In this document: positions 33,096 through 34,575 of the stretch, piece after piece
How positions within the stretch are numbered: the first letter of the stretch is position 1
How the letters are laid out: each line of letters opens with the position of its first letter
Assembly: GCF_050320075.1 (NCBI RefSeq)
Contig: NZ_CP190018.1
Length of the DNA stretch: 64,000 nt
Source: Escherichia coli
GTDB taxonomy: Bacteria; Pseudomonadota; Gammaproteobacteria; Enterobacterales; Enterobacteriaceae
Reading direction: 5' to 3' (one strand)
Translations under genes and position numbers: made by a program
The notes under the pieces: model-generated
Seen by the model: the letters and a program-made list of their open reading frames with translations, nothing else
What the model was told of the DNA's origin: nothing
The model's database searches: none

Positions 33096-34575
33096 CACCA
33101 TTTAACTGAAAGCTACCATAACGTCTTTTTGATCACACGCATGATAATGCGTCTCATTTAAATTTCGTTTTTTGGGTCATGGAAATTTTCCGAACATCAG
33201 TGATAATGAGGGTTTTGTTGTTTTTGTTTCTGCAATGTTTGAGGGCTGTTCCTGGAGACGATTCGTTGCTTGTGAGCAAGTGGTGGTCCGCTTTACTGGA
33301 CGAGTTTTGCATTTGTTGAGTGGTGAAATGGAAGTAAAAAGAGCCCCTTTCTGGCAATGACTGAAAAAGTCAGTAGCGTGTAACAGTAAAAACTAACATA
33401 AAGTGATTATCGTATGATTATGACAATAACTTATAACTTTTATGAAAAGAACAACAGAAACTACGAAGCCATAACAGATTCCTGAGACCATGTTTTCTGA
33501 GGTAGAGAAAATAATTCAAGAGTAAACCAGTTTGTTTTTTGGTCAGTAAAGAACCATGCCTGATGTGAAAACGGGTAATCAACATTCAGTCTGCATGGAT
33601 GTTTGGAAGAGTTGAGAATGTCGGTATGATACTATATACACGTATTTTTACTAAGCATTTCAGTAAGTGTTATACACGTATTTTCATAAACACTTCTACA
33701 AGTGTTTTCGTTAAGCATTGCTATACACATCCAGTTTAGTAAATCTTTACGTTAACTAAATCAGTTTAATGCTGCTGTAAAACCTTTCTGCTTCAGCAAT
33801 CAATCTGCTATTCGATTTTACTGATGTTACGTTTAACCTTTCCTGATATTTCGAGTTTCGACGTTAGCATGAGAAAAGTATCTTTACGCTAAATCAACCC
33901 GAACTTTCCTGAAGTAATCTGACGTTCTTTTCGATGTGCTTACGACGATTCTGTTAAACGACTTTCTGGATGTTTTGATAACAATCAGATTTAGGCATTA
34001 ACGATTCCTGACGTTTTTCTTTTCCGTGTAAGGTCATTGTTTTCGTCATGATGTGACTCTTCTTGCATTGCGAAAGTGTGATGAACGGTTTTGGTGTTTT
34101 GATTCAGATGAAGTTTACGTTATCGATGGTTAATCGTTTTTATGGTGCGTAGTGAAACGTAACGCTTTCAGGAAGGGAAAATCGATTCTGATGGGGATGA
34201 TCGTGTAACGGCGTTATCTGTAAACAGGTTTTAAACATGTCATTCGCATCCGTGATTAAGTTGTGTGATTAAGCTGTAGGTTTTGGCGTTGTTGTTGATT
34301 TGCATTACCAGGAAGCGTTCTGGTTGCGTTTCTGGTGTTTTGTTTGAATGTTCTGTGGATCCTTTTCCCTTCTGACTTTTCTCGTTGTCCATGTCGTTTT
34401 TAAATCCATTCGCTGTTCTTGAGTGTTTTTACCCTGTGTGTAGGATTATCTTTTTGTTCCGTTTCAATCACTCTTAATCAGAAAGTTGTAGCATTGCTCA
34501 ATGCCGGATGCCGTAAAGTTTTACCGCGGTGATTAATGATGTGAAGTCAATCCAAATCAACGGAGATCTCTCATC

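Follow-up and report, generated by a model that had tools for sequence, protein, structure and literature searches.

A 64,000-nucleotide (nt) stretch of Escherichia coli DNA, hereafter the window, contains at 33096–34575 a gene-free stretch that ends at the start codon of a gene of the YagK/YfjJ, or "inovirus Gp2", family. We find that this stretch is most likely a control region of a fairly ordinary kind, one that evolves fast and keeps a few conserved boxes, and we reject the reading of it as a structured RNA; the region itself is an ordinary A+T-rich island control region and not a new RNA class. Sequence alignments show that two short boxes, of which one is a putative promoter, recur in the regions upstream of YagK/YfjJ genes across very distant elements, and that the leuX/pheV-type islands of E. 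coli have stretched this upstream region to about 1 kilobase (kb). YagK/YfjJ genes belong to the core of the tRNA-inserted islands and satellites that make up a very common class in Enterobacterales and Pseudomonas; our literature search found no description of their function or control, nor, in the accessible literature, of the conserved box sequences. The boxes and the palindromes that accompany them offer concrete sites for mutagenesis, footprinting and 5′-end mapping.

The observations that first drew attention to this stretch largely hold up. An earlier note, made from the sequence alone, described it as poor in open reading frames (ORFs), and the longest ORF in any frame across 33096–34575 indeed encodes 67 amino acids (aa; 33154–33357, minus strand); the T bias that the note reported is present as well, with 36.2% T against 26.2% A over the intergenic stretch, whose G+C content is 37.6%. 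In the conserved part, 33509–34575, which we call the module, T makes up 37.8% and A 24.7%, and G+C is 37.5% as compared with 47.1% for the whole window; the AT skew falls to −0.36 at 34000–34400, where G also exceeds C, and C lies 13–21 points below G across 34040–34360. The short direct repeats in the note were counted correctly for TATACACGTATTTT, which occurs exactly twice, at 33635 and 33671, and for which none of the dinucleotide shuffles of the window reached the same number of near-matches, while TAAGCATT, said to be present in three copies, has exactly two (33652 and 33712), the supposed third being a variant, TAAGTGTT, at 33662. Outside the array of ~100 nt to which these repeats belong, k-mers recur in the module no more than in shuffled controls.

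The gene-free stretch is made of two parts with different distributions. BLAST against 5426 complete E. coli genomes found it in ~1880, of which 419 cover the whole stretch and the rest begin at query position ~413; in an alignment of eleven divergent copies homology starts at window position ~33509, and identity to 10 other islands is 0.23–0.46 in 33096–33508 versus 0.6–1.0 downstream. Because the homology of most copies begins at ~33509, the segment 33096–33508 belongs with the 376-aa cargo gene upstream of it; other islands have in that gene's place a 407-aa gene, a pair of 320- and 284-aa genes, or a 345-aa gene. The conserved unit is 33509–34575, a non-coding module of ~1.07 kb that always abuts the start codon of a Gp2-family gene. 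The features of the locus are:

31965–33095, rightward: 376-aa gene of unknown family, directly upstream of the gene-free stretch.
33096–33508, no strand assigned: island-type-specific non-coding 3′ flank of the 376-aa cargo gene, aligning only in islands with the same upstream gene.
33511–33523, plus strand: box 1, ATAATTCAAGAGT, with the family consensus WTAAYWYMAGAGT; the first conserved sequence, at the distal edge of the module.
33612–33640, plus strand: promoter-like box 2, with a −35 TTGAGA at 33612–33617, the conserved spacer TGTCGGTATGATAC, and a −10 that is either TATATA (33633–33638) or TATACA (33635–33640).
33626–33743, plus strand: hypervariable repeat array of TACACGTATTTT and AnTAAGyrTTT units, which holds the repeats singled out by the earlier note.
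33739–33750, no strand assigned: distal GTAA-N4-TTAC palindrome, GTAAATCTTTAC, operator-like.
33751–34495, plus strand: fast-evolving T- and G-rich, C-poor spacer, marked out by its diversity, indels and composition; the body of the putative leader.
34306–34346, plus strand (stem 34306–34337): terminator-like hairpin followed by GUUUUGUUUG, −14 kcal/mol, z = −2.6; also found by a consensus scan.
34496–34575, plus strand: near-invariant proximal element with the palindrome GTAAAGTTTTAC (34513–34524), TGATTAATGATGTGAA and a Shine-Dalgarno GGAG (34562–34565).
34576–35307, plus strand: gene of the YagK/YfjJ "inovirus Gp2 family", directly downstream of the gene-free stretch.

We gathered 88 unique copies of the module from metagenome contigs, 66 of them of the window type, with lengths of 868–1208 nt among these 66. 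A DNA search of phage and viral collections gave no match to the module, a plasmid search gave only four records carrying a match, and a protein search of genome contigs gave only two loci, both Escherichia-like; nor did an nhmmer profile of the module significantly match distant upstream regions. In a second common type, represented by E. coli 042 (locus L007, 4777–5307) and ~16 metagenome copies, a cassette of ~1.15 kb replaces window positions 34130–34410. Its 176-aa minus-strand ORF is intact and has a sub-threshold match to NikA-like relaxosome accessory proteins (E = 0.011).

The suggestion in the earlier note that this region regulates the downstream gene is supported on several counts, namely the sharing of the distal boxes with distant YagK/YfjJ loci, the resemblance of box 2 to the K-12 yagK promoter, the enrichment and conservation of the palindromes, and the near-invariance of the 80 nt before the ATG. 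In 15 of 20 Gp2-family loci the best match to box 1 anywhere in the locus, on either strand, falls on the gene strand, 129–1065 nt upstream of the YagK/YfjJ-family start. K-12 yfjJ, Providencia, Brenneria and IMG/VR contigs are among these loci, with proteins only 27–43% identical; the sequence flanking box 1 is not alignable between distant loci. Inverted repeats flank box 1 in some lineages only, and no consistent hairpin loop is formed; a site for an upstream regulator and a recognition site for the HUH protein are both candidate roles for it.

Box 2 has as its core TGTCGGTATGATACTATATAC, at 33619–39; it aligns both with the TGTCGGTATAnGTAATATAT boxes that precede distant Gp2-family genes and with the TTTAGA-16-TATAAT of K-12 yagK. 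The latter is listed as a constitutive promoter of the RpoD holoenzyme from genomic SELEX (systematic evolution of ligands by exponential enrichment) by Shimada et al. 2014 (PMC3946193), where the yagK-yagL spacer also carries an HNS flag, and the listed hexamers match the K-12 sequence as read directly. Candidate hexamer pairs in the box 2 region are TTGAGA-17-TATACA, TTGAGA-15-TATATA and an overlapping TTGGAA-16-TATGAT, the last of these given by a consensus scan, and in some lineages box 2 is the near-perfect palindrome GGTATAT-GTA-ATATACC. The distance from box 1 to box 2 is 108 nt here and 108–112 nt in the IMG/VR lineage. When IMG/VR was scanned by motif first, the matches were mostly due to chance, with a Gp2-like gene in 5 of 83, and all five of these had box 1 at 110–112 nt.

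Directly downstream of box 2 lies the repeat array, which takes 41 distinct forms of 117–235 nt among the 66 unique window-type copies. Two repeat families, D1 and D4, span it, a 14-mer is duplicated exactly, and a palindrome, AAACACTT-CTAC-AAGTGTTT, occupies 33688–33707; a 12-nt period that the array suggests to the eye was examined as helical phasing of A/T tracts, found not significant and set aside. Among non-redundant copies, 97% keep the distal palindrome at 33739, where the background is 48%. Exact GTAA-N4-TTAC sites number 5 in the 64-kb window where 0.71 are expected, a count reached by 0 of 100 shuffles, and four of the five (33739, 34513, 40427 and 41128) lie in non-coding DNA adjoining Gp2-type genes. 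The half-site GTAAA/TTTAC is the most over-represented 5-mer of the module (13 versus 3.7, z = 4.9), a value just under the 95th percentile of shuffle maxima (5.1) and so borderline after correction for all 5-mers; such sites are retained at 0.72 against a background of 0.48 (P = 0.0016).

The proximal element is 0.94–1.00 identical across 10 independently ascertained islands, and diversity from about −45 to +30 around the start is ~0, the lowest in the locus. At four distant loci (L153, L155, L157 and L159) an invariant palindrome with variable loops, GGGTAGC-N6-8-GCTACCC, stands ~60–70 nt before a Gp2-like start, the same relative position as that of the E. coli GTAAAGTTTTAC site, and these palindromes, like GTAAAGTTTTAC, all start with GGTA or GTA and end with TACC or TAC.

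The gene that these elements precede encodes a protein matching Pfam PF11726 at 5.5e-37 and PF23343 (REP_ORF2-G2P) at 1.3e-9, with weak similarity to Microviridae VP4. The window copy is of the HUH type, its HYH and YLVK motifs intact, and in the family alignment H101 and H103 are nearly invariant and RAxYLxKxxTK is kept in full-length members. E. coli members carry a low-complexity insertion of ~45 aa that is absent in other genera, and it is within this insertion that the 214-aa variants are frameshifted. Compact relatives have one of two layouts. Islands of Providencia and Morganellaceae are laid out as GTPase(−), 400–450 nt, Gp2(+), AlpA(+), and CP4-57-like elements as alpA, yfjI (DUF3987), the boxes and yfjJ; box 2 lies ~55 nt from the start codon in K-12 yfjJ, 140–430 nt from it in others, and ~940 nt from it here. 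Because the boxes of the compact relatives are only 55–430 nt from the gene, we take the E. coli module to be a lengthened form of a conserved control region, the extra sequence being mostly weakly constrained spacer.

The reading that we favour, at about even probability, is that 33509–34575 is the expanded promoter and ~930-nt leader of a Gp2-type HUH gene, probably silenced by H-NS and controlled through operators. A sigma-70 promoter near 33612–33640 would begin a transcript near 33645, the predicted start, and the transcript would run through an untranslated, U- and G-rich, C-poor leader of ~930 nt to the start codon at 34576; if the box 2 promoter is used, the word "leader" in the earlier note is literally correct, for ~930 nt. 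The U/G-rich, C-poor composition over 34040–34360 would make the leader a poor substrate for Rho, which would fit a long untranslated transcript, and the weak terminator-like hairpin at 34306–34346, possibly an attenuator within the leader, may reduce read-through. The palindromes at +95 and −60, and probably also the repeat array just downstream of the promoter, would be bound by a protein that the island encodes, either the AlpA-family regulator or one of its neighbours. By analogy with the K-12 yagK-yagL spacer, the A+T-rich DNA would be bound and silenced by H-NS, which is plausible from the A+T content and the K-12 flag, the module having a raised A+T content (G+C 0.375 against 0.471 for the window).

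Several results weigh against this reading. Promoter-like matches in the region number 5, compared with 5.6 in shuffles, the −10 element of the window (TATATA or TATACA) does not have the conserved final T, and the promoter is called by homology to a site that was itself predicted from SELEX; the gene may also have a separate promoter near its ATG. Sites like the H-NS consensus TCGATAAATT are not enriched (1–2 versus 2.3–7.7 expected), and phasing of AAA/TTT at 10–11 bp does not exceed that of shuffles. In the bulk of the module the low-diversity columns are not clustered, the longest run being 13 against 11.7 in permutations. The Gp2 gene itself shows a high ratio of position-1+2 (non-synonymous) to 4-fold divergence, ~0.7, and frameshifts have cost many E. 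coli copies, which form the 214-aa class, the catalytic Tyr motif; because of this ratio and these frameshifts, part of the region may be functionless.

In a doubtful, if possible, alternative, the module is mostly functionless spacer, an A+T-rich insertion or expansion in a decaying cryptic island having parted the ancestral boxes from the gene, so that only the ~100 nt by the ATG, and perhaps nothing upstream of them, matters. Over the 300 nt sampled before the ATG, nucleotide diversity is 0.13–0.26, as against ~0.07 for the coding sequence, and island pairs that differ by ~5% at the 4-fold sites of Gp2 differ by 16–20% in the module; the reverse holds for other pairs, and the locus is therefore a mosaic produced by recombination. 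Over most of its length the module diverges faster than, or at least as fast as, the synonymous sites of the adjoining gene. This, together with the free variation of array and module length, the lack of clustering among conserved columns, the relaxed constraint on and frequent frameshifts in the Gp2 gene, and the exchange of 34130–34410 for another cassette in 042-type islands, is what a spacer would show. A spacer, however, would not be expected to be kept in all 66 window-type copies, to retain the sequences of boxes 1 and 2 and their 108-nt spacing as in distant loci, or to keep GTAAA/TTTAC sites above background, and the strand composition bias, ~5 standard deviations from parity as calculated from base counts, is unexpected for neutral untranscribed DNA. 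An origin of replication or transfer for the HUH protein, with box 1 or box 2 as recognition or nick site and the array as lineage-specific iterons, we hold to be unlikely. It would account for a short invariant box in otherwise unalignable DNA beside a hypervariable direct-repeat array, for the near-perfect palindrome at box 2 in some lineages, and for a downstream protein with intact HUH and Tyr motifs and matches to REP_ORF2-G2P and Microviridae VP4, and the ORF inserted in 042-type islands adds a weak NikA-like match that is below the cut-off. Yet the place of box 2 is that of a reported promoter, no hairpin loop consistently holds box 1, sites for DnaA and IHF and GATC sites are not enriched over shuffles (so that a theta-type iteron origin is not indicated either), and there is on neither strand the excess of folding energy expected of a single-strand origin; no excised or replicating form of the island is known, and many E. 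coli copies of the protein have no catalytic Tyr. The specific proposal that boxes 1 and 2 and the array together are the cis site of YagK/YfjJ HUH proteins, a rolling-circle or transfer origin for excised CP4-type islands with a box nicked or recognised and the repeats as specificity-determining iterons, is slightly less likely again.

To the idea of the earlier note that the stretch encodes a long structured RNA, or a riboswitch-like leader, we give next to no credence, and it is already largely refuted. In its favour, G and U abound on the plus strand, a composition that allows for G-U pairs, and local hairpins with z of about −2.5 occur at 33688–33707, 33734–33761 and 34306–34337. Nevertheless, an Rfam scan at permissive thresholds gave no match at E<1 in 33096–34575, with three weak matches elsewhere in 28000–42000, folding z-scores in 150-nt sliding windows on both strands range from −2.6 to +1.8 with most near zero, and the check proposed in the note, covariation across homologous islands, revealed neither consensus structure nor covariation in 33 non-redundant copies (73–96% identical), for which RNAalifold returned 0 to −9 kcal per 140 columns, z ~0 against column shuffles; the exception that did better than column shuffles is 34410–34530, next to the start codon. 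The hairpin at 33688–33707 is broken in many copies, and the best one, at 34306–34337, is paired in 93% of cells over 16 distinct copies but has no compensatory pairs and a score not above shuffles. It is also very unlikely that the stretch is the remnant of one or more decayed protein-coding genes, even with an A-rich minus strand, small minus-strand ORFs of 57–82 aa called by the Prokaryotic Genome Annotation Pipeline (PGAP) in some copies, and an intact 176-aa minus-strand gene at the same place in 042-type islands. The longest ORF in the 66 unique window-type copies is at most 91 aa, the small ORFs have no match in Pfam, the best-kept of them is intact in at most 61% of non-redundant copies and the window ORF that corresponds to the PGAP-called ones in only 24%, indels in the module are of any length rather than multiples of three, and a tblastn search with the 176-aa protein of the 042 type found no remnant in the window-type module (best E = 5).

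Comparison with known systems places the expanded control region that we favour among familiar relatives, each of which it matches in part. The yagK-yagL region of K-12 CP4-6 (PMC3946193) has the same YagK/YfjJ family downstream, a TTTAGA-16-TATAAT equivalent to box 2 and a box-1-like sequence upstream of the promoter, and it is A+T-rich with a spacer flagged as H-NS bound in K-12; unlike the window, K-12 has upstream regions of only 271 nt (yagK) and 152 nt (yfjJ), as against a promoter-like box ~940 nt from the start codon, and is without the repeat array, the GTAA-N4-TTAC palindromes and the proximal element. A+T-rich island regions silenced by H-NS are similar in composition, the module having 37.5% G+C in a 47% window and the leuX island an H-NS paralogue, but neither the high-affinity motif nor curvature phasing is enriched in the module, and the strong T>A bias is not general in H-NS targets. 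The double-strand origins of HUH systems (the intergenic region upstream of gene II in Ff phages, the nic site and iterons of pMV158, the nonanucleotide and iterons of geminiviruses) likewise consist of non-coding DNA directly upstream of an HUH gene with a family-wide short box beside lineage-variable repeats, and the layout of gemini- and circoviruses would be parallel as well, whereas here the box is only a candidate, no consistent stem-loop presents it, and box 2 doubles as a putative promoter.

The leaders controlled by the Q-like antiterminator AlpA of Pseudomonas aeruginosa (PalpB, PA0807) resemble the module in that an AlpA-named gene belongs to the same operon family, the leader is long and holds a terminator-like hairpin, and a conserved sequence lies in the promoter spacer, which is where the AlpA-binding element of Pseudomonas sits. 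The AlpA of Pseudomonas, which is Q-like and larger, has a helix-turn-helix at residues 128–142, an N-terminal ring segment and a GGGACG site (PMC7969949, PMC9371919). The island AlpA, by contrast, is a 77-aa protein of PF05930, GGGACG is absent, and the hairpin is weak and without covariation; antitermination by AlpA was set aside on the grounds that the island protein is without the N-terminal segment of its Pseudomonas namesake.

A second copy of the proximal element is present elsewhere in the island:

41128–41178, plus strand: repeat of 34513–34568 (blastn, 77% identity over 56 nt).

It lies after a second Gp2-type gene (40519–41085) and upstream of the next island gene, and it repeats the GTAA-N4-TTAC palindrome, TGATTAATGATGTGAA and GGAG, with the distance to an in-frame CTG/GTG unchanged. 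The annotated start of that next gene is an ATG at 41334, and GGAG stands 10 nt before an in-frame CTG (41186), with a GTG at 41201 also in frame; because the duplicated element places GGAG before CTG/GTG, the real start may be ~45–50 codons earlier. The second Gp2-type gene is the more distant of the two (PF23343 at 3.5e-5), and the ~960 nt before it (from window position 39559) again hold no ORF of at least 50 aa and have a G+C of 0.29–0.37; this region is without boxes 1 and 2 and has a GTAA-N4-TTAC palindrome at 40427–40438.

The gene-free stretch is part of a composite island at tRNA-Leu (leuX), with the integrase at the far right end. The window, which is chromosomal, is 100% identical to strain W5-6. 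To the left is a leftward block of CP4 type, beginning with a YfjP-type GTPase (30896–31780) and continuing with a helix-turn-helix regulator, DUF905, DUF932, antirestriction, RadC/JAB, DUF987, YeeU, CbtA, DUF5983 and DUF957 genes; to the right, an Mrr-like endonuclease gene is the next after the Gp2 gene. A weak Rfam match on the plus strand at 29969–30012, to c4-a1b1 (targets of C4 antisense RNA), scores 18.5 bits against a gathering score of 46.7 (E = 0.84) and is probably due to chance. From the GTPase gene to box 1 (window 31781–33508) extends a slot that different islands fill with unrelated genes (376 aa; 407 aa; 320 and 284 aa; 64 and 345 aa), none of which had a match in Pfam or PADLOC searches; it looks like a hotspot of cargo exchange with box 1 as its boundary. 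When the RefSeq annotation of the identical strain is transferred to window coordinates, the window is seen to carry in addition a Hachiman-like pair of HamA and a DEAD/DEAH helicase (~19500–23100), an H-NS-family paralogue (~38360–38710), a frameshifted ProQ/FinO gene (~43000–43550) and a full dndBCDE-dptFGH phosphorothioation system (~44000–64000).

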